Shown here: piece after piece, positions 10,494 to 59,321 of the stretch | Layout: every line of letters begins with the position of its first letter | Position numbering within the stretch: position 1 is the stretch's first letter | From: Candidatus Latescibacterota bacterium | GTDB taxonomy: Bacteria > Latescibacterota > UBA2968 | Length of the DNA stretch: 64,000 bases | Reading direction: 5' to 3' | NCBI GenBank assembly: GCA_965208125.1 | Contig: OZ242320.1 | Span: 4,224,001 to 4,288,000, forward strand | The notes under the pieces: model-generated | What the model was told of the DNA's origin: nothing | Seen by the model: only the letters and a program-made list of their open reading frames with translations | Database searches by the model: none | Program-made: the position numbers and the translations under genes

Positions 10494-10510
10494 GATCTGT
10501 TTTCCTCATT

Positions 10511-42066: not shown

Positions 42067-42167
42067 AATGATCTACCCGGTAATCTTGAACCGGTTGTCG
42101 ATTTTCCCAGATAGCCGGTTTTTATTTCGTTTGAAACGCCTGGGTTTTTACCAGAATGTGGAAGAAC

Positions 42168-43646
42168 TCACGCAAACCCGCCGAGAAGCTGCTCTCTGGT
42201 CATTACCTTGATTGGTGGCAGGTTATCGACCATTCCCGCGTCCGTGCGTCGAAGCTCATCAATGGTTCCTTGCCGCAATTGGGCGAGCAACTCGTGGTAA
42301 TCGGATTCCAAAGCGAGGTTTTCCAGTTCCTCGGGGTCATTCTCGAGATCGTACATCTCTTCGATCTCCCCGGGGACGAGCCAGCGGATATATTTGTACT
42401 TTCCCGTGCACAGAGATACCCACCAGGGGATAGGAGGATTGCCTATTGGCTCGCCACAGCCGACATCGGTGTCTTCTCCAAAATAATGACCCGTACACTC
42501 CATCAGCAGCGGGCGATCCCATTCGGCGTTGGGATCGGAGAGCAATGGTGTCAGGTCCTCCCCGTGCATCTTCCAGGGTTGTTCCATGCCGATCAACGAG
42601 AGAAAGGTAGGCGGGATATCCTGGCCACCGATTGGCACATCGCATACTGTGCCTGCGGGAATCCGTCCCGGCAGCCGCATGATCATCGGTGCTTTGATAT
42701 TGGCATCATAGGGCGCCACCTTGAGTCGAAAGCCGTGCTGTCCCCAGGCAAATCCCTGGTCCGACGTAAAGACGACCAGGGTATCATCTAATTGCCCCAT
42801 CTCCTCTATGGCGCCGATCACCCTGCCAACCCCTTCATCCAGGGCGCGCACGCCCCGGTTGTATTGTTGTTCCCAATCGGTGAGGGTCCGTCCATCCCGG
42901 ATGCCTACCGGTTGGCCGTGATCTCCCTCGCGCCAAACACCATAGTCCCGCATATGTGTCGCCTTGGTCGGGCGCGGCGGATAGATGTCTTCTGGCGTGG
43001 GGACCTGGGAAACATCTGGATAATCCTGGAGATGGCGGTCAGCCACTTTCCAGGGGCCGTGTACTGCGTCATAGCACAGCCAGAGGTGCCAGGGCTTATC
43101 CGGTTCTTCTGCCCGTCCACGGAGAAATTCAAGTGCATACTCCGTGTAGTTATCGGTAGAATAGCCGCCAACCGGTTCCGGCGGCCCCCCGTTGATGCTC
43201 ATATTCTGATTGACATAGTAGGGCCCGTATTTCTCGGGTTGGCTGTGGTCCCAGATGGCAGAAAAATCCCAGTACCGACCGTGACCATGATCGGGACCTG
43301 TGTGCCATTTGCCGACGATGCCTGTGTACCAACCGTTCTCACGGAGATTCTCGAGCCAGTACGGACACTGGTCTGGATCGCGGACATAGTTTGGGTAGCT
43401 CGTGGGCAGGTGCATGCTCATCACGCCATGCGGCAATTTTCCGGTCAGGTACGTGGCGCGTGAAGGCGCACACCAGGCACTGGTATAGCAGTTGGAAAAA
43501 CGCATCCCCTCATGGGCGAGACGATCAATGTTTGGCGTACTGATCCACGAATGCGCCTCGGGATAGCAACTCACAGACCGAAAGCTCTGATCGTCGGTGA
43601 AGATGTATAAAATGTTGCTCGGATGGTTCGATTGATCATGGTTCAT
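42168..43646 (-). CDS. Sulfatase
   Basis: IFTDDQ, CAPSR, GKWH, SDQG. Confidence 0.93.
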   Translation of the reverse strand: MNHDQSNHPSNILYIFTDDQSFRSVSCYPEAHSWISTPNIDRLAHEGMRFSNCYTSAWCAPSRATYLTGKLPHGVMSMHLPTSYPNYVRDPDQCPYWLENLRENGWYTGIVGKWHTGPDHGHGRYWDFSAIWDHSQPEKYGPYYVNQNMSINGGPPEPVGGYSTDNYTEYALEFLRGRAEEPDKPWHLWLCYDAVHGPWKVADRHLQDYPDVSQVPTPEDIYPPRPTKATHMRDYGVWREGDHGQPVGIRDGRTLTDWEQQYNRGVRALDEGVGRVIGAIEEMGQLDDTLVVFTSDQGFAWGQHGFRLKVAPYDANIKAPMIMRLPGRIPAGTVCDVPIGGQDIPPTFLSLIGMEQPWKMHGEDLTPLLSDPNAEWDRPLLMECTGHYFGEDTDVGCGEPIGNPPIPWWVSLCTGKYKYIRWLVPGEIEEMYDLENDPEELENLALESDYHELLAQLRQGTIDELRRTDAGMVDNLPPIKVMTREQLLGGFA

Positions 43647-43691
43647 TTGTTTGTTCTCCTGTCTTTTAAATTGGGTCGAAAATCCATCAGC

Positions 43692-45161
43692 TCAGCGTTT
43701 CACCTGGGTATAGGGGCTTGAAATATACTGCTTGTAGCCGTTAACCTCTCGTCCATGATTGCTGAAGAAATCGATCTGGGAAAACCCATCCTTTAACGGT
43801 ATGGTTGCAGTCCAGGCACCAGTCTTTGCATCGCGTTCCATATCCATCCATTGGTCTGCGGGGATTTGCTCGTGCAAGAAGGGGGCGGAACCTGCCGGAG
43901 CGCGATCATAGATCCACCATATGCGTCCGTTTATCGGCTGAGGTCCTTCATTAAAACGCACGCTGACACTTAGTTTGTCCTTGGAGATTTTATAATTTGA
44001 CTTCGGAGGCTGTAGCAAAGGCTCGCCACCAAAGAAGTGATGCCAGAGGAAGGCGTCTTTATTCTGTTCGTCCTTTGCAGCAGCGACATGCGGCGTTTGC
44101 GAGTGCCCACCGTTAGGTTCGTAATAGACTGGCAACTGGGGATGGTTTTGCGCTCCCCAGAGAATATCGTAGGCGACATAGTCATGCGTTCCCGGCTGAA
44201 AAAGAATATCAACGCCGCGCTCCATCAGACGATCCCAATTCTCCGTAACGCTCACCCCGGGCCGTAAGCGATCCGCAAAGCTTTGCATATCGTCCAGGGA
44301 TTTCCCCATTTTCAGCGCCATCTTACCCATACTGCGCTCAGATCCCACCATAACGCCTTGATACCATTTGGCGCGTTTTGGATCCAGGTCGATATCGCCG
44401 GCCTTTACAGCCTCAAAGAATGCTTTGTTTGCCTCTTCAGCTTTCGCCGTTGCTTCCCTGTCGGCTCTTCGAGTCGGCGAAAAGTAAGCAAACGCATGGT
44501 TGGAGCATGTCGCGGTAAAACGCTCGTCATGTATCAAGGCGACCGCAGGCGACATGCCGTTCTTGGAGCTGCCCGAACCGGCCACTTTGCCTTTTTCGAA
44601 GTAGTCGGTTTCCGCATACGCCGCGGTGGTTGCCCGCATTAAGGTCATCGACCAAATCCAGAGAGTCGTGTATCGAGGATTCAGGTCTTTCATGAACCTG
44701 CGCATCATTTTTTGCTCCAAACCCTGTTTCCCCGGAATCTGCCTAAACGCCTTGACGTGCGTCTTAACGAGGCCAACGCCACCTGCCAGCAGTTTTGCCT
44801 GAAAGTCGGTTGGGCGCGAGTCTTTCATCAACGTCTCATAGGGATTGGCTCCCGTAATGCTAAAGCCCTTCGCCTTGCCTTCGAGCGGCACAATCATACG
44901 CACCGGGATCCGATAATCTTGTCCCGGCCACCATTCGGCGACGTTGATTTCGATGAGCTTCTGTCGCGTCGTGCCTATCACCTCATCTACATGCCAGTCC
45001 TTCAACGTCTTTATATCCAGCGTGCTTTCGTCAAGAATCTCTTCAATATTGAACATGTCGCAATTCATACCAGAATCCTTCTCAGAATCGGCAGCAAACG
45101 CTACGGAAATCGCAAAAGTCGCGAGAATAACCAGCGATGCCATTATTCTAATTCTATCCAT
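43692..45161 (-). CDS. Secreted PqaA-like alpha/beta hydrolase, copy 1
   Basis: Signal peptide (AFA), GSSKNG elbow, GTHD, NGGH. Confidence 0.7.
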   Translation of the reverse strand: MDRIRIMASLVILATFAISVAFAADSEKDSGMNCDMFNIEEILDESTLDIKTLKDWHVDEVIGTTRQKLIEINVAEWWPGQDYRIPVRMIVPLEGKAKGFSITGANPYETLMKDSRPTDFQAKLLAGGVGLVKTHVKAFRQIPGKQGLEQKMMRRFMKDLNPRYTTLWIWSMTLMRATTAAYAETDYFEKGKVAGSGSSKNGMSPAVALIHDERFTATCSNHAFAYFSPTRRADREATAKAEEANKAFFEAVKAGDIDLDPKRAKWYQGVMVGSERSMGKMALKMGKSLDDMQSFADRLRPGVSVTENWDRLMERGVDILFQPGTHDYVAYDILWGAQNHPQLPVYYEPNGGHSQTPHVAAAKDEQNKDAFLWHHFFGGEPLLQPPKSNYKISKDKLSVSVRFNEGPQPINGRIWWIYDRAPAGSAPFLHEQIPADQWMDMERDAKTGAWTATIPLKDGFSQIDFFSNHGREVNGYKQYISSPYTQVKR

Positions 45162-45173
45162 TGCCTTCTCCTT
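45003..45173. repeat. 171-bp direct repeat with 49862..50032
   Basis: 2 mismatches by manual alignment; covers the RBS and first ~53 codons of the duplicated hydrolase. Confidence 0.9.
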
Positions 45174-45223
45174 TGCAGATTTGGTGTGGCTCGCTAAGAC
45201 CTATTTTGGTTCCAGGCTGTCTC

Positions 45224-45256
45224 TTAGACAACCGGCCTGATTTCAGGTGCTCCGTC
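45224..45256 (-). pseudogene. 3' remnant of a PhyH gene (DGAPEIRPVV*)
   Basis: Matches NGAPEIRPVV* ending 54885..55739; 24 nt identical to 50867..50890. Confidence 0.88.
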
Positions 45257-46337
45257 TCGCCGATGGCCTCGATGCGAAAGAAGCTGCAACCGTGCGAACA
45301 GCCTCGCTCCAATCATCCCAAAGCCCCGGACCTTCCGGGCGAGGCTCTGGCGGGGGAACTTCTGGCCCAAGTTCAAGTTCGTGGAGTTTTCTCACGTTGG
45401 GCGGTGGCGATGGTCGTGGCCCTTTGACATAACGGCCGTTATATACTCTGTCATATACAGATTTTTTGTAAGCATCATAAAGAATCATCTGTCGAATCTG
45501 CGGAGGATTGCTGTAGTTCCGCGTTGCCGAGTGGAACATTCGCCCGTGCCACAAAACCACATCGCCCTCGTCACCAAAAAACTCAAAGGGTTCAATGTCG
45601 GCGAGTGCGTCCTTGAGTCCTGCAGGCTGCGGCAAAACAAATGCCGCAGCGCCGCTTTCCGGATGGGGCGAATGTAGAATTGAATAGCGGGCAAGATCTA
45701 CAGAGTCCGGCTCTGCTTCGTAGAGCAAGCGGTGACTGCCGGGAAAAAGGGCGATGCCACCTCCACCCCTGGGAACCTGATCAACGTATGCGCTTGCCAC
45801 CAGATGCACCGGCTCGGGATCAATGTGTGCACCGGCACGGACGGCATCCGCCAGAGCAGGTGAGTCGCCAGGACGCTCTCTCGGCAGCACGCAATACATA
45901 CCGCGCAACTCCTTGCCACCCCAGACTGGCCAACCACGCAACCGACTTCCACGCGGATCTGGATCGGCCGCGGAGGAAGTTACCTCTGGTGTCACAACTT
46001 CACCTTCGCCGAGAAGTTGCTCAAACCACGGGAATACACGGCGTGGAAGCAAGTTGATTAAGTCCTCGTCGCCAGAGAGTTCACGCAATCGCCAGCCGTG
46101 GTCACCGGTGCGATCATTCATGCCATCAGGCGTGCTTTGACGATCTGCCTCCGGAAGACCGTTTAGCCAGGTTTGAGGATCGTCTCGGCGCAAATGACTT
46201 GAGGTGTTTCCCGCCCACAGCCTGTCCCGCGCTGCAGCACAAAGTTTGGGGTCGAGAATATTTCGTTTAACGAGGAATCCGTTCGTAATAAATTGTTGGA
46301 TCTCTTCTGTACTCAGTGCTGCCAATGCTGTATTCAT
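45243..46337 (-). CDS. PhyH-family dioxygenase
   Basis: FITNGFLV, HID, FPGSH, GDVVLWH..FHSA; its stop codon lies inside the remnant at 45224..45256. Confidence 0.85.
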   Translation of the reverse strand: MNTALAALSTEEIQQFITNGFLVKRNILDPKLCAAARDRLWAGNTSSHLRRDDPQTWLNGLPEADRQSTPDGMNDRTGDHGWRLRELSGDEDLINLLPRRVFPWFEQLLGEGEVVTPEVTSSAADPDPRGSRLRGWPVWGGKELRGMYCVLPRERPGDSPALADAVRAGAHIDPEPVHLVASAYVDQVPRGGGGIALFPGSHRLLYEAEPDSVDLARYSILHSPHPESGAAAFVLPQPAGLKDALADIEPFEFFGDEGDVVLWHGRMFHSATRNYSNPPQIRQMILYDAYKKSVYDRVYNGRYVKGPRPSPPPNVRKLHELELGPEVPPPEPRPEGPGLWDDWSEAVRTVAASFASRPSARRST

Positions 46338-46354
46338 GGAAATAACCCTTCTTT

Positions 46355-46401
46355 CTTCAATACTGAACCATTGTACGGACTTCAATACCGAACCATTGTA
46401 C
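46355..46401. repeat. Tandem 22-bp direct repeat, period 25
   Basis: CTTCAATACTGAACCATTGTAC / CTTCAATACCGAACCATTGTAC. Confidence 0.85.
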
Positions 46402-46604
46402 AAAAAAAAGAGTTGGATTTCAACAATTCTTAAAAGACAGGTACTTACGGAAGGCGATATATGTTATTGGGATTTTGCTCGAAAATCACCCTGAACAAAT
46501 TCGCTTGCTTCATGTCTGTCTCTTTTTGTAGTATGCATCCGAATCCTGCCCCTGGACACCAGCAGTAGTTTTGGTGATTTCAAATACATTGAGGAGGAAG
46601 AAAA

Positions 46605-48167
46605 ATGAAAGCAAGACCATTCAAAGGTGCGAAGATAGGCAGGGCTCTGACCATTGCATTGCTATTGGCTTTGACCGCGGGCAACGTCGCGGCCCAAAGC
46701 CCCACCGAGCTGCCGGCCAAAGATTTGAGCACGATTGATTTGTCAAAATCGGAAGGTGCTAAATACTTTCTCATAGTAAAGGCTTATGCCGATTATATGA
46801 TTATCCACGGGCGCGACCGTTACGGAAGAGAACATTCGCCCCTTTTTGCCACAACGCTTAACCGGGAAACCGGAAATGTATATCGCGAAAATCCTCCCGA
46901 TGCACCCAAAGGTATCCGCAATGGCGATCGCACTTGGCGTGGTTCAAATACGTCAAAAGATAATGGTTTATACAGCATACTTTATCATTTGACAGAAATC
47001 ACCGGAGATGACAAGTATGCACGGGAAGCGGATAAAGCAATCAAATGGTTTTTTGCCAACTGCCAAAGTCCTGAAACGGGATTTATGGCCTGGGGAGAAC
47101 ACATCGGTTGGGATTTTTTTACAGAGGCGCCTATTAAAATGGGTACTCGATCTTTGACACACGAGTACAAAATTTTCAATTATTGGGACAAGGTGTGGGA
47201 ATTTAATCCGGAAGCTGCTGAAAAGTTTGCACTGGGATTATGGGAACACCAGATTTATGCGCACGAAGGACCAGAAGCGGGCGAGTTTAGCCGACATGCC
47301 AGTTATGACACGCATAGTCCTGGAAAAGGAAGAGCTTTTCCCGCACATGGCGGCAATTATATCTATGTTTGGACAAAAGCATATCGGGAAACTGGCAAAG
47401 AAGTTTTTTTAACCGCCATTGAAACCGTATTGAATTATTATGAGCGAAATACAACCGATAAAGGTGCGATCTTATATGCATCAGATTTTCCTGAGCAATA
47501 TTCTTTGAAACAAAGTATGAATCTGGCATCCAATCTTTATCGCGCAAAGGATTTTATGCCCGCAGACCTTGCAAATAGGATGAAGAAATTGTCAGAAGGA
47601 ACAGATTCTTTGTATTTAAGTTTTGATCACGATCCGTCAAAAGGCGGAAAAGGATTTCTTGAATCCGCCAATCTTATGACCCTTGTACCGGGGAATTTTC
47701 GGAGGTCAAGTACTGGAACGGATGCCTGGACTGAAATGTGGTCGGCTGGTTATGGGGTGGGATCGGGAAGTACCGAGCAGGCAAACAAATGTTATGCGCG
47801 GTATAAACTAACAGGTATTGAAGGCTATAGAATCCTTTTTATGAAAGCGGTGAATGCCTATTACAACGAAGATCCTCCGCCGTCAGCAGTACTTTATCCC
47901 AGCAATTATTCCAGCATATTTAATATGATGATGAGTGCGTATGAATTAACAGGGGCAGAACGTTTTTTAAGCAAAGCAAAAACGTATATGGACTTATCGG
48001 TAGAAACTTTTCTGAGTGATCAATCCCCTCTGCCAAAAGCATCAAACCAAAGTGAACATTATGAAGCCATAACAGGTGGCCCAGAATTAATGGAAAATGT
48101 GCTGCGTTTATGGATGGTGATGAATCCTCAGGATCGTGCTGGCGAAACTGAAATAGGTGAAAAATAA
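46605..48167 (+). CDS. Secreted alpha/alpha-toroid protein (lyase-like), homologue of 10511..11929
   Basis: GAGGAGG RBS, signal peptide, GRDRYG, WGEH, FSRHA, FPAHGG. Confidence 0.75.
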   Translation: MKARPFKGAKIGRALTIALLLALTAGNVAAQSPTELPAKDLSTIDLSKSEGAKYFLIVKAYADYMIIHGRDRYGREHSPLFATTLNRETGNVYRENPPDAPKGIRNGDRTWRGSNTSKDNGLYSILYHLTEITGDDKYAREADKAIKWFFANCQSPETGFMAWGEHIGWDFFTEAPIKMGTRSLTHEYKIFNYWDKVWEFNPEAAEKFALGLWEHQIYAHEGPEAGEFSRHASYDTHSPGKGRAFPAHGGNYIYVWTKAYRETGKEVFLTAIETVLNYYERNTTDKGAILYASDFPEQYSLKQSMNLASNLYRAKDFMPADLANRMKKLSEGTDSLYLSFDHDPSKGGKGFLESANLMTLVPGNFRRSSTGTDAWTEMWSAGYGVGSGSTEQANKCYARYKLTGIEGYRILFMKAVNAYYNEDPPPSAVLYPSNYSSIFNMMMSAYELTGAERFLSKAKTYMDLSVETFLSDQSPLPKASNQSEHYEAITGGPELMENVLRLWMVMNPQDRAGETEIGEK

Positions 48168-48342
48168 ATACAATTTCAACTTACAGAGAAATAGGGAAGT
48201 GACCATGCAAAAAACTAAAACCACCTGATTGGAGGAGCACAATATGGGACTGGAAGTTTACGATTCAATACGGTGGAATCACATCAGTAAAACCAGTTTT
48301 TTCATTTGGAGAAAATCAATCAGTCAGGAGTCTAACAGATGA

Positions 48343-48468
48343 ACAATACCAACTGAGCCTGGTTTGGGTATTAGCATCGATGAAGATAAACTCATGGCAC
48401 AGGTTGGCGAACCCCGGCCCCGCAGCACCAGTTACGGTCTCGATGATGGATCGGTTGTAGACTGGTAG
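48343..48468 (+). pseudogene. 3' remnant of a galactonate dehydratase (DgoD)-like enolase-superfamily gene
   Basis: TIPTEPGLGISIDEDKL...DDGSVVDW*; PGLG and terminal DGSVxxW are characteristic of this family. Confidence 0.8.
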
Positions 48469-48535
48469 GATTTGCCATAATTTTTAGGAAAACGAACGCG
48501 CAACCCCAATGATCCCATTTGCTTCACCTCAGCCA

Positions 48536-50020
48536 TCAATGCTGAGATGGCGAAAGTTCCACTCGGGTATAAGGGCATGAAAGATACTGCTTGTAGCCGT
48601 TAACCTCTCGTCCATAATTGCTAAAGAAATCGATCCGAGAAAACCCCTCCTTTAACGGTATGGCTGCCGTCCATACGCCAGTCTTTGCATCATATTCCAT
48701 CTCCATCCATTGGTCTTCGGGGATTTGCTCGTGCAAGAATGGGGCGGAACCTGCCGGAGCGCGGTCGTAGATCCACCATATGCGTCCACTTTTCGGCTGA
48801 GGTCCTTCATTAAAACTCACGCTGACACTTAGTTTGTCCTTGTCGACTTTATGGCTCGACTTCGGAGGCTGTAGCAAGGGCTCGCCGCCAAAGAAGTGAT
48901 GCCAGAGGAAGGCATTGAGATTCTGATTATTTTTTGCTGCCGCGCTATGCGGTGTTTGTCTGTGTCCACCATTGGGTTCGTAATAGACCGGCAACTGAGG
49001 ATGGTTTTGCGCGCCCCAAAGAATGTCAAATGCAACATAGTCATGTGTTCCCGGCTGAAAAAGCATATCGACGCCTCGCTCCGTTAGCCGATCCCAATTC
49101 TCTGTCACACACAATCTGCTAAGAATGCAATCTGCCAGGTTGTGTATTTCGTCCCAGGATCTTCCCGCTTTCAACGCAAGTTCATGCAGACTCCTCTTTC
49201 CTCCCACCATATTGGCTTGATACCAACGCGCGCGTTGTTTGTTTAAATCGACATTGCCTGCCTTGACAGCCTCAAAGAATGCTTTGTTTGCCGCTCGCAC
49301 GTTATCCATCTCTTCCCTGTCAAATCTTCGAGTCGGCGAATAGTAAGCAAAGGCTCTATTGGAACATGTCGCGGTAAAACGCTCGTCATTAATCAAGGCG
49401 GTAGCAGGCGATATGCCGTTCTTGGAGCCGCCTGAGCCGGCCACTTTGCCTTTTTCAAAATGATCGGTTTCCGCATACGCGGCGGTTACAGCCCGCATTA
49501 AAGTCATCGACCAAATCCAGACCGTCGTGTATCGCGGGTTAAGGTCTTTCAGAAACAATTGTCCCACCTCTTGTTCCAGTCCCTGTTTTCCCGGGATCTG
49601 ATTGAACACCTTGACAACAGTCCTGACAATGCCAACGCCATTGGCTAACAGTTTTGCCTGAAAGGCGTTTGGTTTCGAATCTTTCATCAGTGCTTCATAT
49701 GGACTTCCTCCTGTGATATGAAAGCCCTTTGCTTTACCTTCGAGCGGCACAATCATGCGCACTGGAATCCGATAATCTTGTCCAGGCCACCATTCGGCGA
49801 CGTTGATTTCGATTAGCTTCTGTCGCGTCGTGCCTGTCGGCTTGTCCGTGTGCCAATCTTCCAACGTCTTTATATCCAGCGTGCTTTCGTCAAGAATCTC
49901 TTCAATATTGAACATGTCGCAATTCATACCAGAATCCTTCTCGGAATCGGCAGCAAACGCTACGGAAATCGTAAAAGTCGCGAGAATAACCAGCGATGCC
50001 ATTATTCTAATTCTATCCAT
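48536..50020 (-). CDS. Secreted PqaA-like alpha/beta hydrolase, copy 2
   Basis: Colinear paralogue of 43692..45161; GGSKNG. Confidence 0.7.
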   Translation of the reverse strand: MDRIRIMASLVILATFTISVAFAADSEKDSGMNCDMFNIEEILDESTLDIKTLEDWHTDKPTGTTRQKLIEINVAEWWPGQDYRIPVRMIVPLEGKAKGFHITGGSPYEALMKDSKPNAFQAKLLANGVGIVRTVVKVFNQIPGKQGLEQEVGQLFLKDLNPRYTTVWIWSMTLMRAVTAAYAETDHFEKGKVAGSGGSKNGISPATALINDERFTATCSNRAFAYYSPTRRFDREEMDNVRAANKAFFEAVKAGNVDLNKQRARWYQANMVGGKRSLHELALKAGRSWDEIHNLADCILSRLCVTENWDRLTERGVDMLFQPGTHDYVAFDILWGAQNHPQLPVYYEPNGGHRQTPHSAAAKNNQNLNAFLWHHFFGGEPLLQPPKSSHKVDKDKLSVSVSFNEGPQPKSGRIWWIYDRAPAGSAPFLHEQIPEDQWMEMEYDAKTGVWTAAIPLKEGFSRIDFFSNYGREVNGYKQYLSCPYTRVELSPSQH

Positions 50021-50039
50021 TGCCTTCTCCTTGCTGTCT

Positions 50040-50786
50040 CTATGCCGTTTCCACTACGTTAGGACGGCGGACGGATGGGGGCGTGAGAACGCGTTTTTGT
50101 TGCTCGGTCAGGTCTTCGTAGTCTTCGTGATTGTAGTATATTGATGCGTAGGAAGCGTGGCCGGGGGTGAATTTGTAGAGTAGGGTTCTGCGTTCGTTTT
50201 CAGCAGTCCAGGGCAAGGTTCCGTGCATCGTCGCTTCTGTGAAGATGAGGGCGTCGCCTGTTTCTGCACTTGGATTGGCGAGGTAGTGAGGGATGCGCTT
50301 AAAGGAGCGAACCTCTTCAGGGACGTTGAGGGCAAAATTGGATTTGTGTGAACCGGGTACGCAGCAGAATCCGCCAGAACCTGGGGGGGCGGGTGCAAGG
50401 AAGTAGACGACTACGGTCAAGCCATTGCGCATGACGCCGTCGCGATATTTGTAATAGTGCGTACCTGCACGATGGTCCCCACCATGGAGGCCACCTTTGC
50501 GCCCACCTTGACGCATAAAGATGCCGTAGTCGTGGTCGGCACGAAATTGGGGGCCGAGGAGTTCGCTGAGGTAAGGAATCATGTTGGGGTGGTCAAACAG
50601 ATTTTGGAAGGGTTTGCCCCAGAGCGAGACTCTGCGGGGAATCTTGAGTCCGTTATTCACTTCCTCTTGGTCGGCCATTTTTTGATCGGCAATTGCATTG
50701 AGTTCGTCTACTTCGGCTTGAGAGAGTACATTTTTGACAACGATGTATCCTTGCAGGTCAAATATGAATTTTTCTTCAAGTGTCAC
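50040..50786 (-). CDS. PhyH-family Fe(II)/2OG enzyme with an HxG motif
   Basis: FDLQGYIVV, LHGG, VPGSHK, MHGT; GTG start after GGGAG. Confidence 0.88.
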   Translation of the reverse strand: MTLEEKFIFDLQGYIVVKNVLSQAEVDELNAIADQKMADQEEVNNGLKIPRRVSLWGKPFQNLFDHPNMIPYLSELLGPQFRADHDYGIFMRQGGRKGGLHGGDHRAGTHYYKYRDGVMRNGLTVVVYFLAPAPPGSGGFCCVPGSHKSNFALNVPEEVRSFKRIPHYLANPSAETGDALIFTEATMHGTLPWTAENERRTLLYKFTPGHASYASIYYNHEDYEDLTEQQKRVLTPPSVRRPNVVETA

Positions 50787-50866
50787 GGAGAATCTCCCTT
50801 TCTATATGGTCAGGTAAACCAGACCCTGGTTCGCTTCTATTTCCTCTGTTCCGTTCCCTATCTTTT

Positions 50867-50929
50867 TTAGACAACCGGCCTGATTTCAGGCGCGCGTTCC
50901 ACTTGTTCCTGCGTTAATATTTGCTCCAT
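50867..50929 (-). pseudogene. 20-codon ghost gene: PhyH-like head fused in frame to a PhyH tail
   Basis: GGAG RBS, then MEQILTQEQVERAPEIRPVV*. Confidence 0.85.
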
Positions 50930-50973
50930 TACATCTCCAGAAAATCAGTATTGATAAAAACACAGAGGGGATT

Positions 50974-52401
50974 CTAAACACTTGGCAAAGGCACAGTATC
51001 TCCTGTTTCATGTTGCCACAATCGAATCTTCGCCGCCATATCGCGAATGCGATCGCGATGTTCAGGAACATCAAACAGATTGTTTTCTTCATAAGGATCT
51101 GTATTAAGGTCGAACAACTCACACTGATCACCAGCACACAAATTCAACTTCCAGCGATCACCCGTCACCACAGATCGCCAGGGCAATGTCGCCATCAAGT
51201 TAATGCTTGGATTCCCTAAATTGCGATCGCCAATCCCATTCCACTCCATAAATGCAACGTGATCCTTCAAATCGCGCTCACCGGTGAGTGCACCAGCCAA
51301 ACTCTCCCCTTCACACTGATCTGAAACTTCAACGCCCGCCAGATCCAAAAGCGTCGGCACCAAATCCGCATGCCCAAACACACCATCGATTCGTTTCTGT
51401 TCCTTATTCAACCACGGCACACTGAGCAAAAACGGCACTCGCGCAGACTCTTCGTAAAAAGTCCGCTTTTCCATCATCGCATGATCGCCCACCATTTCTC
51501 CATGATCACTCGTGTAAGCAATAATCGTATTCTCCAGTTGCCCTGTCTCTTCCAATGCCTGAATGATCCGCCCCACAGCATCATCCACAATCTTCATATT
51601 TCCGAAGTATTGCGATCTCACTTTCCGCCATCCCAATTCCGTACTTAAATCTTCACCTGCCTCCTTCTTCGTTGCATAATGCTCTGCTCGCACCCGATTA
51701 AATCGCGAATGCCCTTCAGGCTGTTTCAAAAACGTCGGGCCAACCGGCAATTCCTCAGGATCATACAAACCGTCATACGGCCCTGTATATGGAGGGTGCG
51801 GTTCAAACGTACTGCACACCAGCAACCAGGGCTGATCGACATTTGCTCGAATAAACCGATCCGCTTCCTGCGCGACAAACGCCCCGACCTGTTGTTCCGC
51901 TGGCAAACGCGCGCGATCTCCTGCAGAAAATTGTTTCAAGTCCGGTGCCAAATGCGAGGGTGGTTCAACGCCCTGCGCCACCAACCACTCATAGTGGGAA
52001 CTCATCGGCGCATCTTGAATCGTATTCAAATGCCGCAAATTATCCTGAATACTGATCCACTCATCAAACCCATGTTGGCGAACGGTATCGTTGCCCAAAT
52101 GCCATTTGCCCATATATGCCTTGCGATATGTATCTGGCATCATTTCCGCAATCGACTTTGTATCTTCTCGTAGATGAATCCCATTCGCCACACATCCGTG
52201 CGAATGAGGGTACAACCCAGACATCAGCGTACCCCGCGATGGCGTACACACAGCCTGACCAACATACGCATTCTCAAAAACAAAAGACCGCTCCGAAAGC
52301 GCATTCAAATGCGGCGATTGAATCCAATCATTGCCGTAACACGACATGGTATCTGTGCGTTGCTGATCTGTGAACACAAAAAGAATGTTCGGTTGATTCA
52401 T
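50974..52401 (-). CDS. Sulfatase
   Basis: FTDQQR, CTPSR, GKWHLG, SDHG. Confidence 0.94.
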   Translation of the reverse strand: MNQPNILFVFTDQQRTDTMSCYGNDWIQSPHLNALSERSFVFENAYVGQAVCTPSRGTLMSGLYPHSHGCVANGIHLREDTKSIAEMMPDTYRKAYMGKWHLGNDTVRQHGFDEWISIQDNLRHLNTIQDAPMSSHYEWLVAQGVEPPSHLAPDLKQFSAGDRARLPAEQQVGAFVAQEADRFIRANVDQPWLLVCSTFEPHPPYTGPYDGLYDPEELPVGPTFLKQPEGHSRFNRVRAEHYATKKEAGEDLSTELGWRKVRSQYFGNMKIVDDAVGRIIQALEETGQLENTIIAYTSDHGEMVGDHAMMEKRTFYEESARVPFLLSVPWLNKEQKRIDGVFGHADLVPTLLDLAGVEVSDQCEGESLAGALTGERDLKDHVAFMEWNGIGDRNLGNPSINLMATLPWRSVVTGDRWKLNLCAGDQCELFDLNTDPYEENNLFDVPEHRDRIRDMAAKIRLWQHETGDTVPLPSV

Positions 52402-52496
52402 ATCTATCCCTCAAATTTGTCGTTCGCGGTATTCCCTACTTGTTAAACCAAAGAAGCTGCAATCCGTTTTCGCTCACAGTACTTTTTAATTTTCGT

Positions 52497-53846
52497 TTAC
52501 ATTTGTTTCCTGCGAAATGCGTGGGGATTTACCATTTCATATCCCCATCGATCCAACAATTCCTGCCCGTTCTCAAACGCGTCGTTCTGTTCCTTCAACA
52601 GATCCGAAAGCAAACCTTCCAGATGCGTTTCAACAGATTCTACCTCAGGCCGACCACAAAGGTTCTCCAACTGATAAGGATCTGCCTCATTGTCATACAG
52701 CAACCAGGACCCCTCCAGGTCACGCACATAAGTATAACGGCTCGTGCGAACGCCTCGATATTCCCTGCCACCATGTTCATAAGAATAATTGGCAAACGGA
52801 ACGTAGCATCCAAAAAGTGAAGCCTCCAAAGGCGCATCGGCTTCACCGAGCATGTGTTTGGCAAAACTCACCCCTTCGACGCCTTCCGGTACAGGCGCGC
52901 CCACCAGATCCAACAACGTCGGCATCATATCTGGTATGCCAAAAGGGGTGTCGATTTGGCGACTCGTCCCATCTGGCAATCGCAACAGAAAGGGAACAAG
53001 AATGGATTCATCCCAGGGCCGTATTTTCCGATCATGGCCTTGCGACCCATTCATTTCACCGTGGTCAGACGTAAACACAAGAATTGTATCCTCTGTCATC
53101 CCGAGGCGTTCAAGTGCTTCTTCAACACGCCCAACACAGTGATCAAGTGCCGTAATATGCGCATAATAACCCCACATATCATTCCGGGCAGTCGCTTCAC
53201 TCTCAGCAGGCACATTGTCTCTCAATACGATTTCATCTTCATTGTAGAGCGCTCTGTATTCTTCCGGCACTTTGTGGAAAGGGTTATGAGGCGGGCCATA
53301 TGAAACAAAAAGGAAAAAGGGATCGTCTTCATCCTGCCTGCCCTCCAGATACTCAATCGCACAATCGGTCTGTGCAAACGCATCGTATCCTTCCCACTTT
53401 TTCATAATACCCGAGTCATCATAATAGGGCGAATCGTAATAATTGTGCGAGCATTCGTGCGCGCGCCAAAAGTCAAAGCCCAACCGTCGCTCAGGTGGGA
53501 TGAAATTTTGCTCGTGGGTATCTCCGTCCAAATGCCACTTGCCAATGTATGCGGTGTCATAACCGTGTGACTTTAGAACCTCAGCGAATGTGGTCGTATT
53601 GGGCTCAAGCCGAATCTGGTTTAAAAAGATCCCATGCGTCAGTGGATATTGCCCGGTCAAAAGACAGGCACGAGCCGGACAACAAACCGGGCACGTTGAC
53701 ACAGTCGTATCCAACCGAATACTCTTTTGAGCCAGGGCATCGAGATTGGGTGTCTTAACATTTGGATCTCCCGCATACCCCGTCGCCTGTGCGCGCCACT
53801 GATCGGTCAAAATGAATACAATATTGGGCTTCTCTTTGTTGGCCAC
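52497..53846 (-). CDS. Sulfatase
   Basis: GTG start after GGGAGG; LTDQWR, CCPAR, GKWH, SDHG. Confidence 0.93.
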   Translation of the reverse strand: MANKEKPNIVFILTDQWRAQATGYAGDPNVKTPNLDALAQKSIRLDTTVSTCPVCCPARACLLTGQYPLTHGIFLNQIRLEPNTTTFAEVLKSHGYDTAYIGKWHLDGDTHEQNFIPPERRLGFDFWRAHECSHNYYDSPYYDDSGIMKKWEGYDAFAQTDCAIEYLEGRQDEDDPFFLFVSYGPPHNPFHKVPEEYRALYNEDEIVLRDNVPAESEATARNDMWGYYAHITALDHCVGRVEEALERLGMTEDTILVFTSDHGEMNGSQGHDRKIRPWDESILVPFLLRLPDGTSRQIDTPFGIPDMMPTLLDLVGAPVPEGVEGVSFAKHMLGEADAPLEASLFGCYVPFANYSYEHGGREYRGVRTSRYTYVRDLEGSWLLYDNEADPYQLENLCGRPEVESVETHLEGLLSDLLKEQNDAFENGQELLDRWGYEMVNPHAFRRKQM

Positions 53847-54040
53847 AAAAACCTCCCTACTTAATTGCACAACAATCAGAATGCAATCACGATACGAAAA
53901 AGTTGTCCATACCTCATGATAATCAAACAAATATTGATAATCAATATAGCCCAAAAAAACAATATTTGCCGTAGTTCAGAAATTAACTATTATGGGACAT
54001 GGCAGAAAAGGCTTGTAAACCATCGAATGAGGAATACCCT

Positions 54041-54808
54041 ATGGCTCTAAACGAAGATCAGCTCACCTTTTACCGACAAAACGGCTACTTGCTGGCCTCC
54101 GGCCTGATTTCTGATCAGATCGCGGCTCAAGCCGAAGCGGCGATGTGGAAGCTGATGGACATGGACGCGGGGGATGCGTCCACCTGGTCGACGGTGCCGG
54201 AGACCGCCGATACGTATAACAAAGGCAGCGGTGCGGTGATCTTTAACGGAGTGCAGGATCCCGATTTGATGGCCTGCGCCACAGACGACTACCTCAACGC
54301 TGTAGCGCAGCTGCTGGGCGAACCGATTGATTCGTTGCACTCACCCGAAGCGATCTTTGCACTAAATTTGTTGGGGCGTCCGGGGCAATGGACCATGCCA
54401 CAGCACCCGCACATCGACGGCCTCAACCCGAAGCATGTGCCCAAGACCTTTCCCGGGCCCTATCGCATCACCAGCCTCCTCTATCTAAGCGATATCGAAC
54501 CGCAGGGCGGCGGGACCTGTGTTTGGCCTGGTTCGCCCAGCAAGATACGCGCCCTGGCTGAATCCGATCCGGTCAAGTACGAGCACCTGAAAGATCTGAA
54601 CAAGGACATCCCTTCGTTAGATCTGGAACCCGGTATCGAACTGACACCGAAGCGCGGTGATATCCTTTTTTTTCAACACTTGTTCGGCCACAATGGGTCG
54701 GTCAATACTGCGGCTAAACCACGTTTTATGATGCGCTTTTTTTGTTCGTGCGAAAAATGCTACACGACTTGGTCCAAGGCGGGTCATTGGGGTTTTTGGA
54801 CGCCATAG
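54041..54808 (+). CDS. PhyH-family dioxygenase
   Basis: NGYLL, HID, WPGS, RGDILF..GHNG. Confidence 0.88.
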   Translation: MALNEDQLTFYRQNGYLLASGLISDQIAAQAEAAMWKLMDMDAGDASTWSTVPETADTYNKGSGAVIFNGVQDPDLMACATDDYLNAVAQLLGEPIDSLHSPEAIFALNLLGRPGQWTMPQHPHIDGLNPKHVPKTFPGPYRITSLLYLSDIEPQGGGTCVWPGSPSKIRALAESDPVKYEHLKDLNKDIPSLDLEPGIELTPKRGDILFFQHLFGHNGSVNTAAKPRFMMRFFCSCEKCYTTWSKAGHWGFWTP

Positions 54809-54884
54809 GCCTCATCCCATAATACCGCGTTACACAAAAGCGCGTCAACGAATCACAGAAATATCAAAAAGATTTGATTCCTTC

Positions 54885-55739
54885 TTAAACAACCGGTCTA
54901 ATCTCTGGCGCACCGTTCTCTTCACACCACGGCGTAAGTGGGCTATCTCCACCGCCAGCTTTGTACCCCTCTATCTTTGGATATCTTTCACCTACCAAAT
55001 ACCGACCCAATTCATCCAGTTTATCCATAAAGGCAGGCTCCTGGCTTCGATAATCCAGCGGCATAACCCAACGATAGCCATAACCAATCATGATCGCCTT
55101 TCGCATGTTACCCGATGTGTTTATACCTGCTGCATGCCCGGTTCGATTTTCAAAGAATAGGCAATCACCCGCCTTTAAAGAAGCTTCAACATAACCTTTT
55201 GGTCCAGGCTCTCCTTCAGGGACTTCAATGGGGTTGCTGTGGCGATTGGAGCCAGGCGCAACCAGCGTCATACCCGAGTTTGGTTCGGTCAGATCATTGA
55301 GATAAAACGCGCACTTTAACAAAACACGGGGCACATGATTTCCCAATACTTTTGTCGCTGCACCATAATCGCGATGCCATCCGACCCGCCGAACTTTCTT
55401 CGAGGGATCGGAAGAGCCTCTATAAGCAAGTTGTGATACCATCAGTTGGATGTGTGCACCCAAAAGCTGTACCGCAATCGACAGCGATTTGGCGTGGGTT
55501 AGCAGTGGAATAAAAGCATCATCTTTCACAATACAATTCTTAAAGCCCAGTCGTCCCGTGCGCATGTGTTGGTCGTCACTCGCAATCAACCGATCAGCAG
55601 CCTCAACGACCCGGTCAATCATGTCCTGATCGAGCACGTCGCGCACGATGAGATAGCCTTGCTCATCAAACTGCCTGATTTCTTGTTCTGAAAGCGCATG
55701 CCAGTCCAGATCAATCGACGATTCTGTCATCTGAGCCAT
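54885..55739 (-). CDS. PhyH-family dioxygenase
   Basis: FDEQGYL, WHRD, APGS, GHAA; ends APEIRPVV. Confidence 0.9.
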   Translation of the reverse strand: MAQMTESSIDLDWHALSEQEIRQFDEQGYLIVRDVLDQDMIDRVVEAADRLIASDDQHMRTGRLGFKNCIVKDDAFIPLLTHAKSLSIAVQLLGAHIQLMVSQLAYRGSSDPSKKVRRVGWHRDYGAATKVLGNHVPRVLLKCAFYLNDLTEPNSGMTLVAPGSNRHSNPIEVPEGEPGPKGYVEASLKAGDCLFFENRTGHAAGINTSGNMRKAIMIGYGYRWVMPLDYRSQEPAFMDKLDELGRYLVGERYPKIEGYKAGGGDSPLTPWCEENGAPEIRPVV

Positions 55740-55785
55740 TGTTTGTCCTCCATTCAACAATTTTTAAAATATAAGTTTATCGCTT

Positions 55786-57780
55786 CTATGCAGGGTTAGC
55801 GGACAGTTCAATTCTCTTCATCACCCGCTCCAATACCCACACCCTGACGATGCCGTCCCGCTGCCCACCAAGCCCGCTTGTGTAATTGTTCTTTTCGAGT
55901 TGCGCATTGTGTTCCGGTCCGAACATCTCCTGTTTATTTATGGCCTGCTCCAGGGCGGGAATAAGCGGTTTCATGGGCTGGAGTTCTTCGCGGCTGCGGT
56001 ATGACAGATAGGCACCGGCTCGTAGCCGCGCCCAGAGGATATCGCTCGACAGCGCGCGCTCAAAAGCAGGCAGGGCAAGGGCGCCTTCGCCTGCCCGCAC
56101 CAGATAGTCCCCAGCGGCCAGGCTGACGCTGATTGAGGGATCGTCAAGGAGGGGGGATAGGTGCTCGATCATCTCGCGTTCCACACCAAGTGAGCACAGG
56201 CCGGTGACAGCCCAGAAACGCACGGCGCTGTCGGGATCACCAAGTCGTTTTGCGAGTTCTTCCTTTGCTTCTTCGCCCATGCGCGCCAGGTCCGCTGTTT
56301 CCAGGATCCGCTCGTAATTATCACAGTGCGCACCGACTGCCTGACTCACACCATTGAACTGCTCAGCTCGCGCAGCAATTTCCGGTTCATCAATCAACCC
56401 CAGATCGCGGGTCTCGATCATCCAGCCGAACAATTTTTGCCGCAACTCATCCACGACGTCGCTGAAAGCGGGGTCATCTGCAAGGTTATTTATCTCTTCG
56501 GGATCGTTCTCGATGTCATACAATTCTTCAGCCGGTTTGTGATCCTGCCAGATTTGGAACTGCTGGTAGTGCTCAGGCAACCCGTCCTGTTTGATCATGA
56601 CCGGCGGGCCGAGCATCAGAAACACGCCGTCGGGGTCGTGGACCTTCTGTTTGCCCGGTAGGCAAGAGGTCTCCCAGAAGGCGCGTTCCGGCGTTCCTTC
56701 CTCGGGGACCTTCGCGAAGAACCCACCGTCTGGATAGAACGAAGCGTATGGCTGGTGGGGGAGGAAGTTGCGAAAGTAACGGTATTTTTGGGTGCGGATT
56801 GTACGGATTACTTCCGGGTTGTTGTCCAGCCGATCCCTGGCACTGCAGACGAATTCTCTCGGTTCATCTCTATTGGGACCGCACAAATTTCGGCTCTGGA
56901 TGTGTTTGGGTACAGGAACGCCTGATAGCTGCAGGGTCGTCGCACACAGGTCCATGTGCAAGACGGGTTCATCAACCGCGGTGCCGGGTTCTGCCGGAGC
57001 CAGGTGCCGGTACTTCTCCGGGAATCGCATGATCAGCGGGATATTCAGTCCGTCGTCGTAGGCGTGGATTTTGCCCCGGGGATAACCCGTGCCATGGTCT
57101 CCCCAATAGACCACAATAGTGTCTTCACTGTGCCCCTGCGCTTCAAGCTCGTCCAGGATCTCTCCTACTTGCTTATCGACGTTGGTAAGGGCGTCGTAGA
57201 AGAGCGCCATCCGTTCCCTGAACAGGGGGGTGTCGGGAACAAAGCTCGGAACCGGCACATCATTCGGGTCGTGCAACTCGTCGTCGCTCAAGAGCGAGGA
57301 ACGCGCTTTCCGCGCATCCTCGGGCGTCAGTTTGAATACACTGGCGTGGGAACTGCCCAGTCTGTAATACATGAAGAACGGCTTGTCTTCAGGGCGATTC
57401 TCCCAAAAATCTTCAGCGTTGTAATACTGTTCACGCTCATCTTTGGAGACGTATAGATTGATGTCATTGTCCGGCTGCGTGCAGGCATAACCGGCGTTTG
57501 TCAGCATTGTGTTTAACAGCTCAACCCCTGCAGGGCGGATGACCGCGCTGCGGTGATGATGCGTGCCCAGCGTGGTCGGATGCATACCGGTATAGATGCC
57601 GGTGCGCGACGGTGAGCAGATTGGGCCAGCGGTGAACGCGTTTGTGTAGCGCACACCTTCTGCCGATAGGCGGTCAATATTTGGGGTATCCGCATATTGA
57701 TCTCCGTAGCAACCGTAGTTCCAGGCACTGGAGTCGTGGTTGCTGATCCACAGGAAATTGGGTCTGTCTTGTTTTGTCAT
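55786..57780 (-). CDS. Sulfatase with C-terminal HEAT-like repeats
   Basis: CSPSR, GDHG, RDRLD; tail LGDPDSAVRFWA. Confidence 0.9.
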   Translation of the reverse strand: MTKQDRPNFLWISNHDSSAWNYGCYGDQYADTPNIDRLSAEGVRYTNAFTAGPICSPSRTGIYTGMHPTTLGTHHHRSAVIRPAGVELLNTMLTNAGYACTQPDNDINLYVSKDEREQYYNAEDFWENRPEDKPFFMYYRLGSSHASVFKLTPEDARKARSSLLSDDELHDPNDVPVPSFVPDTPLFRERMALFYDALTNVDKQVGEILDELEAQGHSEDTIVVYWGDHGTGYPRGKIHAYDDGLNIPLIMRFPEKYRHLAPAEPGTAVDEPVLHMDLCATTLQLSGVPVPKHIQSRNLCGPNRDEPREFVCSARDRLDNNPEVIRTIRTQKYRYFRNFLPHQPYASFYPDGGFFAKVPEEGTPERAFWETSCLPGKQKVHDPDGVFLMLGPPVMIKQDGLPEHYQQFQIWQDHKPAEELYDIENDPEEINNLADDPAFSDVVDELRQKLFGWMIETRDLGLIDEPEIAARAEQFNGVSQAVGAHCDNYERILETADLARMGEEAKEELAKRLGDPDSAVRFWAVTGLCSLGVEREMIEHLSPLLDDPSISVSLAAGDYLVRAGEGALALPAFERALSSDILWARLRAGAYLSYRSREELQPMKPLIPALEQAINKQEMFGPEHNAQLEKNNYTSGLGGQRDGIVRVWVLERVMKRIELSANPA

Positions 57781-57874
57781 ATATCCGATTCTCCAAAAAA
57801 AAGATTTTGTGATGATTGGGTATCAATATGCATCAGGCGATAAAAATGCTAACTGTCAATCGCGTTGTAACCCC

Positions 57875-59302
57875 TCACCATTTCTGATCTATAATCAGAA
57901 ATCCTTTCGCTTTACACAGTTCACTGTCTTTCCATCCGTAAAAGAGGAGCATGCCATCTCTTATATTTCCTTTTGGATCTTTAATCGGTTGAATATTGTT
58001 AAATTTCCAACCGGCATACTCCGGGGCACGTGGCGTCAAATCTCTCACTCTTTGCCAGGTGAATCCACTATCTGTGGAGATCCACTCTTCAATATCTCCT
58101 CCACCTCTGGAGTCCATGTTGCCACGTTTTCCTTTTATAAATTTGTGATCACCTACTATCAGATAAGCATGTAGTGTGCCACTTTCATCCTGCCTGAGAT
58201 AGCAACTGTTCCAATCATCAGTGGCAGGGGTGATAACCGTCTGTATCCATTCATGATTAATATACCTCACATAATAGTAATTGCACCTGTCGGGCACATC
58301 TTCCGATAGCACATGCAAAAAGGCCGGATTGTCATTTTCATCTATGACAATATCAGGTGGAACGCCTGCGCCTCTCCAATCGGTATTCCAAATCTTGCAT
58401 TTGTCATTTGCAGTGCCAATATCAATGGGCGTTCTGACTGTCTCGCCATCAAAATTCGCGACCTCATGCGTTTGAAGGTTGATTTTTACATAATAGAGAT
58501 TGTATTTGATCCCGAGATTCTTTTTGGTTCCATAACGAGGATTGTAAAACTTTTCTGGGATATCCTTCTTATTGTCATCATAAGAACAAAATACGGCGTG
58601 CAAAAACTTTCCATCTTTACTCGGAAAGCAAGTGTGATAAGAAGACCACTCATTCAAGTCCATCGGATCATCTACTGTTGCTGTTTCTTCCCCCATGTTT
58701 AAATCTGTGACATCATTTTCAGGCCCTGACCAGGTTTTACCTTCATTGTCTGAAATTAAATATGACCACGAACTTCTGTGTTCTCCTGTTCGGAAATAAA
58801 TCACTTGTCTATTGTCGTATATGTGATAAACCGTAGGATAAGAAAGCGAGTTTCTTATTTCAGGGGCTGGAGACCAGTCTTTTACACTGTTTCCAATATC
58901 CGCTACCTTTTTTGAGATTAAATGTGTTCCTGGCGTTCTGTGACAACCTGACAAAATATGTAAAAAGTCATCATTATCAGCCCAGATTATAGGGCAATAA
59001 TGCTGGTCGTTTGAGCCTTTGGTTCCCAGTTGTAGGGGAGACGAAAAGGACTTTGTCTCGGGGTTAAAAGAGATAACAAAAGGATATGTCTTTTCCCTGA
59101 TCTCAGCATCCATTGGTGCCCCGCCATTATAGACGATATATACTCGATTGTTGATAAAGATGGCTTGAGGGCGCTGCCTTCTGTCATAGATCATTTTTAA
59201 TTGTCCCCCACTTCCAAAGGGGACAACAGAAAAATCCATTTGTTTCTCAGTATCCACAGCCTGACCTCCAAATACAATCGGTGAAATAAGAAGGACGCTC
59301 AA
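57875..59302 (-). CDS. BNR_4 beta-propeller protein, probably 5'-truncated
   Basis: DQHYCP, SYP, Asp-boxes SDNEGKTW and STDSGFTW; begins mid-signal-peptide with no RBS. Confidence 0.75.
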   Translation of the reverse strand: MSVLLISPIVFGGQAVDTEKQMDFSVVPFGSGGQLKMIYDRRQRPQAIFINNRVYIVYNGGAPMDAEIREKTYPFVISFNPETKSFSSPLQLGTKGSNDQHYCPIIWADNDDFLHILSGCHRTPGTHLISKKVADIGNSVKDWSPAPEIRNSLSYPTVYHIYDNRQVIYFRTGEHRSSWSYLISDNEGKTWSGPENDVTDLNMGEETATVDDPMDLNEWSSYHTCFPSKDGKFLHAVFCSYDDNKKDIPEKFYNPRYGTKKNLGIKYNLYYVKINLQTHEVANFDGETVRTPIDIGTANDKCKIWNTDWRGAGVPPDIVIDENDNPAFLHVLSEDVPDRCNYYYVRYINHEWIQTVITPATDDWNSCYLRQDESGTLHAYLIVGDHKFIKGKRGNMDSRGGGDIEEWISTDSGFTWQRVRDLTPRAPEYAGWKFNNIQPIKDPKGNIRDGMLLFYGWKDSELCKAKGFLIIDQKW

Positions 59303-59321
59303 TTTCCAGGAGTGCCACCAT

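Follow-up and report, generated by a model that had tools for sequence, protein, structure and literature searches.

Introduction

Leader or upstream ORFs with translational coupling occur in operons. Gene remnants in bacterial intergenic spacers have been described for Buchnera (PMC3164680), and remnants and pseudogene fragments have been covered by pseudogene surveys and tools (PMC522871, PMC9336565). Here we analyse a short ORF from the window, a stretch of 64,000 nt of a Candidatus Latescibacterota genome. The ORF shares with such remnants homology to part of an intact gene, the presence of the intact syntenic gene in four of nine related loci and, in the one genome pair compared, an unconstrained reading frame. 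We conclude that it is in all likelihood not a gene but the scar that recombination or deletion left when a PhyH gene was lost.

Results

A short ORF between a sulfatase gene and a PhyH gene

The ORF lies in a spacer of 187 nt that separates a sulfatase gene (50974..52401) from a downstream PhyH gene of 248 aa (50040..50786). The features of this region and the intact paralogue used for comparison are listed below.

50974..52401, minus strand: sulfatase gene sulf475, the anchor of the locus (PF00884, E 6.9e-55)
50904..50966, minus strand: type I leader, 63 nt, holding GGAG, the ATG and the first 8-9 codons of the small ORF (defined by identity to L001-L004)
50867..50929, minus strand: 20-codon ORF, MEQILTQEQVERAPEIRPVV followed by a stop codon; a fusion of leader ORF and PhyH tail in the window
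50894..50903, minus strand: joint, 10 nt assigned to neither leader nor tail (window compared with L001, L002, L003 and L043)
50867..50893, minus strand: last eight codons and stop codon of a 54885-type PhyH gene (APEIRPVV, stop), with only synonymous differences from intact genes
50802..50866, minus strand: 3' flank, 65 nt, which travelled with the tail (matches in L043 and others)
50040..50801, minus strand: 248-aa PhyH gene, PhyH248 (PF05721, E 8e-12), including its own RBS (50787-50801)
54885..55760, minus strand: intact paralogue PhyH291, a 291-aa ORF (PF05721, E 5.4e-16)

The 20-aa ORF with an RBS-like site that had been predicted originally is indeed present, with GGAG at 50935-50938, 5 nt upstream of the ATG (50927-50929). 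Its 20 residues include none of the PhyH domain (≈ 210 residues), which in the intact paralogue spans residues 31-222. With nothing left of the catalytic domain, the product cannot be an enzyme. A comparison of the spacer with Rfam gave no notable match, only two sub-threshold eukaryotic ones (E 0.58 and 0.67). We found no terminator-like site on the coding strand of the spacer, and its fold was unremarkable (z = −0.05).

The spacer is part of a co-oriented array of sulfatases, four PhyH-family genes, a BNR-repeat protein and two paralogues of 489 and 494 aa that are 80% identical (43692..45161 and 48536..50020, minus strand). A genome scan anchored on an alignment of these two paralogues yielded 46 loci; all relatives are MAGs. 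Nine of the 46 are Latescibacterota MAG loci that carry sulf475 (L001-L007, L015 and L043); gene content was listed for 12 of the 46. Motif and anchor searches covered all 46 loci, head and tail motifs being sought in these and in the window. The context of the sulf475 stop codon was present in the window and in nine of the 46 loci.

Repeated loss of the PhyH gene downstream of sulf475

sulf475 is conserved at 98-99.8% amino acid identity in the nine related loci, and in all nine a variable spot opens a few bases 3' of its stop codon. Directly 3' of sulf475, four of the nine (L002, L003, L005 and L043) carry a full 54885-type PhyH gene of 283-293 aa, 83-97% identical to the 54885 gene of the window. 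The arrangements were as follows.

L002, L003: sulf475, type I leader, intact PhyH gene (283 or 293 aa, 83-85% identical to the 291-aa gene)
L005, L043: sulf475, a different, shorter leader, intact PhyH gene of 284 aa (97% identical)
Window, L001: sulf475, type I leader, short joint, PhyH tail, 65-nt flank, 248-aa PhyH gene
L004: type I leader cut after eight codons and joined directly to the next sulfatase gene; no tail
L007, L015: true PhyH head (MAQMTE.SID, 10 codons) and the last ≈ 40 nt of the gene, out of frame
L006: PhyH gene gone, no remnant

The joint differs between four groups (the window with L001; L004; L006; L007 with L015), which implies independent deletions. On this comparison, the ten close genomes record at least four separate losses of the PhyH gene at this spot. 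Relative to the gene order of the L043 or L002 type, the window lacks at this spot both the body of the PhyH gene and the sulfatase gene sulf492; the copy of sulf492 that it does have follows the 489-aa gene, at 42168..43646.

Several further irregularities were seen in these loci. In the other leader type (L005:5990-6045, L043 and L015) the PhyH start is nearly duplicated: ATGGCTCA occurs twice, 29 nt apart, and the duplicated start creates the in-frame extension MAQTKGEQT. L007:8460-8480 has lost exactly the stretch between the ATGGCTCA repeats, a small direct-repeat deletion. L043 contains two gene fragments, one with the first 139 residues of a 664-aa sulfatase (5258-5674) and one with only residues 289-488 of the 494-aa protein (10001-10600). 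An extra ORF of ≈ 265 codons lies between sulf492 and the 248-aa PhyH gene in L002 (8264-9062) and is not at that place in the window.

The tail is a relic of a PhyH gene

The C-terminus of PhyH291 reads NGAPEIRPVV, followed by the stop codon. Its true start is likely the ATG at 55739 (MAQMTESS), which would give a protein of 284 aa; two homologues of this length, P0001 and P0002, begin at MAQMTESS. The assignment of APEIRPVV to the tail of this type of PhyH gene, made in the original prediction, is confirmed. The tail of the small ORF differs from that of PhyH291 at five of 27 nt, and all five differences are at synonymous third positions. It is also identical at the protein level to six intact copies, with synonymous differences only in the DNA. 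This is the pattern expected of a relic that was once coding. None of 100 dinucleotide-preserving shuffles of the window contained the tail match, which places it far beyond chance. Among the 120 homologues of PhyH291 listed, 20 have GAP[EA][IV]RP within their last 30 residues and three end in exactly APEIRPVV. The body of the gene is gone, as had been proposed; the genuine relic that is left consists of the last 27 nt and the 65-nt flank.

The best match to the tail and flank together is L043:12556-12632 (92% over 77 nt). This segment belongs to a longer PhyH 3' remnant of ≈ 130 nt with an in-frame stop (within L043:12400-12590), which is followed by the flank, sulf492 and the 248-aa PhyH gene. 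The distal two-thirds of the flank correspond to a module found just upstream of sulf492 in sister genomes (95-96% over 38-51 nt to L001, L004, L005 and L015). In the window, the junction of the flank lies 15 nt 5' of the start codon of the 248-aa PhyH gene, and the sequence beyond this point matches genomes with a different upstream neighbour: compared with L002, L005 and L043, similarity upstream of PhyH248 begins just 15 nt before the start codon.

The module of the flank, ≈ 45 nt long, includes a 6-bp hairpin (AACCAG...CTGGTT) at window positions 50817-50831 and recurs 5' of sulf492 in L001, L004, L005, L015 and L043. In the window it adjoins the upstream side of the 248-aa PhyH gene; there is no T-run on the coding strand. 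At L003:7503-7560 the stop codon of the PhyH gene reads GAA, and the protein continues for 10 codons into the spacer (ending in PVVEKRYGIDYGG); P0003 has the same kind of C-terminal extension. Read in the frame of the L003 extension, the 3' flank of the small ORF gives stop-KR-stop-G, which confirms the homology of the flank.

The head is a leader of the spacer

The type I leader of the window is 100% identical over 63 nt to those of L002 and L003, 100% identical over 61 nt to that of L004 and 98% identical over 64 nt to that of L001. We found no other copy in the window or in the 46 loci, and throughout this set the head of the small ORF occurs only downstream of sulf475. L002 and L003 have this GGAG, this ATG and the first nine codons (MEQILTQEQ) in identical form 5' of an intact PhyH gene. 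Here the leader ORF has 17 codons (MEQILTQEQKESKQ[CW]LR); it runs in a frame that differs from that of the PhyH gene and overlaps the start of the latter, which has its own RBS and start (MPQMTES or MAQMTES) downstream of the leader. The true RBS and start of the PhyH gene are seen in L002, L003, L005 and L043 and are absent from the window. It had been proposed that the RBS and head of the small ORF were retained from a PhyH gene; this was not borne out, as the leader already exists in the sulfatase-PhyH spacer of L002 and L003. The fallback proposal, that head and tail come from two different genes, is nearly right: the two have different sources, that of the head being a spacer leader.

The reading frame of the fusion is not maintained

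L001, the nearest relative, shares gene order and scar with the window, but its scar has two extra bases, which put the tail out of frame. The resulting ORF of 51 codons has another C-terminus and ends 10 nt inside the 248-aa PhyH gene. Comparison of the spacers of the window and L001 revealed four substitutions and three gap columns in 189 aligned columns, as against 10 differences in 1428 nt and two in 747 nt for the flanking genes. In this single genome pair, constraint on the spacer thus looks relaxed, with divergence several-fold faster than in the flanking genes. The suggestion that an in-frame ORF was kept to avoid polarity on downstream genes is unsupported, given the out-of-frame scar of L001, and the other losses are out of frame (L007, L015), devoid of a tail (L004) or scarless (L006).

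The short ORF could nevertheless be a functional leader or upstream ORF in which translation matters and not the peptide, for instance by keeping ribosomes on the spacer, by counteracting Rho-dependent polarity or by coupling. GGAG, the 5-nt gap, the ATG and the first eight codons are identical in all five genomes with a type I leader (window and L001-L004), two of which have an intact PhyH gene, and GGAG-type RBSs are present at neighbouring genes, such that a short ORF may be translated from this predicted site. The stop codon of the ORF overlaps the PhyH start region in L002 and L003, and the L001 ORF ends within PhyH248. However, ORF length and end point vary with the arrangement (8 codons in L004, 17, 20 and 51), and the ORF of the window stops 80 nt before the next start and hence lacks a geometry for coupling. 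The ORF is missing from L005, L043 and L015, which have the other leader type, and from L006 and L007, and the spacer revealed no attenuator-like structure or terminator. Nor does the identity of the leaders speak for the ORF: it may reflect recent common ancestry, as the adjacent sulfatase is ≈ 98-100% identical, and with so little divergence the five copies say nothing about selection. We consider this explanation unlikely; the small ORF is probably a scar without function.

The head does not resemble a PhyH N-terminus

The main reading of the original prediction was that the small ORF is what an internal in-frame deletion left of a single PhyH gene, with RBS, N-terminus and C-terminus all retained from that gene. 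This reading gains from the fact that the tail is truly PhyH-derived. In addition, a six-frame translation of the window contains just three instances of the pattern L[ST]x[EQ][EQ][IVL], two of them at PhyH N-termini and the third in the small ORF, but the pattern was drawn up from the very three sequences that it finds. To judge the similarity of the head, we aligned the 27-nt leader ORF, and separately its nine residues, with the first 32 codons of an intact neighbouring PhyH gene. A score at least as high as that of the real sequence was reached by 4373 of 5000 DNA shuffles and by 2100 of 5000 protein shuffles. The likeness of MEQILTQEQVE to a PhyH opening, and to LSEQEIRQF and LSTEEIQQF, is thus at chance level, and synteny identifies the head as leader sequence. 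The check proposed, a search for homologues starting with MEQILTQEQV, points the same way within the window, the 46 loci and the 120 PhyH homologues listed: the words MEQI, EQILT, QILTQ, ILTQE and LTQEQ were found in none of the 120. Moreover, in L002 and L003 the head stands in another frame and 5' of a complete PhyH gene, which brings its own RBS, start and N-terminus, and the scars that do combine a true head with a tail (L007, L015) start with MAQMTE. An internal deletion of this kind is thus very improbable.

An older origin of the leader as a relic of a PhyH head was also considered and rejected, since the alignment was no better than the shuffles. By eye, the two leader types are alike in that both open with ATGG..CAAA and both end at the PhyH RBS; we do not claim a likeness.

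That the small ORF encodes a conserved standalone small protein is next to negligible in probability, having an RBS-like site and an open frame in its favour, and against it a peptide that is not conserved even in L001, a head confined to the position after sulf475 and a tail confined to PhyH ends and relics in the window and the 46 loci.

Proposed origin of the scar

A scar formed by loss of a PhyH gene would have arisen as follows. The ancestral order, still present in sister genomes, would have been sulf475, a short leader and a full 54885-type PhyH gene. In one version of the leader, the RBS-like GGAG and the ATG would open a short upstream ORF beginning MEQILTQEQ. In the lineage that led to the window and L001, illegitimate recombination would then have removed the sequence between codon 9 of the leader ORF and a point 8-9 codons short of the PhyH stop, and with it the RBS, the start codon and ≈ 270 codons of the PhyH gene. 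As a consequence of the deletion, the leader ORF now runs into the surviving PhyH tail. The sulfatase gene that comes next in the L043- or L002-type order is also missing, and the 3' flank that survives now ends 15 nt upstream of the 248-aa PhyH gene. In-frame fusion in the window, giving 20 codons, would be a matter of chance, the fusion in L001 being out of frame.

L002 and L003 contain an 8-nt direct repeat, GAACAGAA, in the leader and in the PhyH 3' end, in the same codon phase, and the two repeat sites are the places that are joined in the window. Such a repeat would fit a microhomology-mediated deletion that by itself gives an in-frame fusion, although an 8-nt match between two regions of ≈ 60 nt is not rare (≈ 4% by our own estimate). 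A simple product of the GAACAGAA repeat was rejected: relative to that product, the joint has a net excess of 3 nt in the window and of 5 nt in L001. Within the joint lies a short CG run to which L001 adds 2 nt. The donor allele, with the tail codons CCT GAA ATC AGG ... GTC, was not found intact in any of the fetched loci. Because of these two observations, we infer the mechanism, and we place the breakpoint to within ≈ 10 nt. P0001-P0004 are PhyH proteins that are 82-99% identical, and one of the contigs encoding them could hold the donor allele.

A 10-nt string, GAAATCAGGC, occurs both in the N-terminal PhyH motif EQEIRQF (window 55667-55689) and in the ghost-type tail APEIRPV (50872-50894 and 45229-45251). 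It is a potential microhomology within such genes, unused in the scars seen here. Deletion between two GAAATCAGGC copies was rejected for the present scar, which keeps the tail-specific GCG CCT upstream of the string.

A second scar in the window

A second relic, ghost A, was found at the end of another PhyH gene of the array.

45224..45276, minus strand: ghost A, 26 nt of foreign sequence and a PhyH tail (45224-45250) (shuffles and comparison of six loci)

The tail of ghost A has one mismatch to that of the small ORF (24 nt identical). Ghost A replaces the last two codons and the stop codon of a 386-aa PhyH gene (ORF 45243..46403), which thereby gains 13 out-of-frame residues and ends at a TGA inside the relic. 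In six related loci the 386-aa gene ends with AGSEV or AASLA and a stop codon; the window diverges after 45277. The 26 nt include a match to the interior of a 537-aa sulfatase gene (17 of 17 nt; 23 of 27 by eye; BLAST E ≈ 0.001-0.005). This gene is absent from the window and lies directly upstream of a 291-aa-type PhyH gene in L001. The match is borderline, and a former sulfatase-PhyH pair may have been deleted at the site of ghost A. The sequence after the stop codon of the ghost A tail corresponds to the 5' flank of the 494-aa-type gene in L002 and L003 (95-98% over 45-57 nt).

At the 5' end of the 386-aa ORF, for which a TTG start is listed, two 22-nt direct repeats that are 95% identical lie 25 nt apart (window 46355-46401). 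The true start of this gene may be further downstream.

Organisation of the sulfatase-PhyH array

Across window positions 42000-60000 and the nine related loci, gene order in the array differs in nearly every one of the ten genomes, and the shared genes are 90-99% identical. Similarity on the downstream side repeatedly begins 11-21 nt before start codons, as seen for p489/p494, PhyH248, sulf492, PhyH291 and sulf485. Judged by gene order, the array is a very fluid mosaic among near-identical genomes. Integron-like cassettes were considered on the basis of spacer length and set aside; the gap between sulf664 and sulf475, for example, is 17 nt in L005, which would be too short for attC sites.

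The two paralogues of 489 and 494 aa have an N-terminal hydrophobic stretch that by eye resembles a signal peptide, and no Pfam match. Their relatives, at 56-88% identity, come from MAGs labelled Latescibacterota, Planctomycetota, Verrucomicrobiota, Acidobacteriota, Chloroflexota, Myxococcales, Bacteroidales and others. By these identities, conservation of this unnamed family across phyla is unusually high.

Discussion

Gene remnants are familiar objects, and the small ORF is an ordinary example; the relic should not be annotated as a protein. It also calls for caution, as the accidental fusion of a leader ORF to the end of a lost gene can produce an RBS, an ATG, an open frame and a tail like that of a family member. 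The scar records a former PhyH dioxygenase gene 3' of sulf475, a gene that this lineage has been able to do without on several occasions. The comparison suggests that sulfatase-associated dioxygenases are rapidly gained, lost and reshuffled between genomes that are nearly identical, which may interest research on polysaccharide degradation. In the literature, as far as the search reached, no paper combining Latescibacteria, sulfatase and PhyH was found.

A more far-reaching idea is that the scar is the trace of an unusually active, cassette-like turnover driven by a dedicated recombination mechanism, or that the type I leader is part of one. We regard this as doubtful. If true, and not the outcome of illegitimate recombination and selection, it would be a new route to diversify repertoires for glycan degradation.

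As compared with leader-ORF systems, the small ORF is similar in having an RBS-like site, an ATG and a short frame between co-oriented genes, and in L002 and L003 its stop codon overlaps the next start region. It differs in that neither length, peptide nor stop position is conserved, that there is no attenuator and that the ORF is missing from half of the related loci; the RBS and start are shared by the window and L001-L004. With the PhyH family (PF05721) it has in common the last eight residues, which are the C-terminus of the 291-aa member of the window and belong to the GAP[EA][IV]RP tails that recur in the subfamily, but it retains no part of the catalytic domain and no detectable homology to the PhyH N-terminus.

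The closest likeness is to gene remnants of the kind cited above: a short stretch is homologous to the end of an intact gene at a place where relatives have the whole gene, and constraint is relaxed. Unlike the Buchnera remnants, the scar resides in a free-living-type, sulfatase-rich Latescibacterota genome, not in that of a reduced symbiont. It also differs from known remnants in being very short (27 nt and the flank) and in lying in frame on a pre-existing leader ORF, which gives it the look of a mini-gene.
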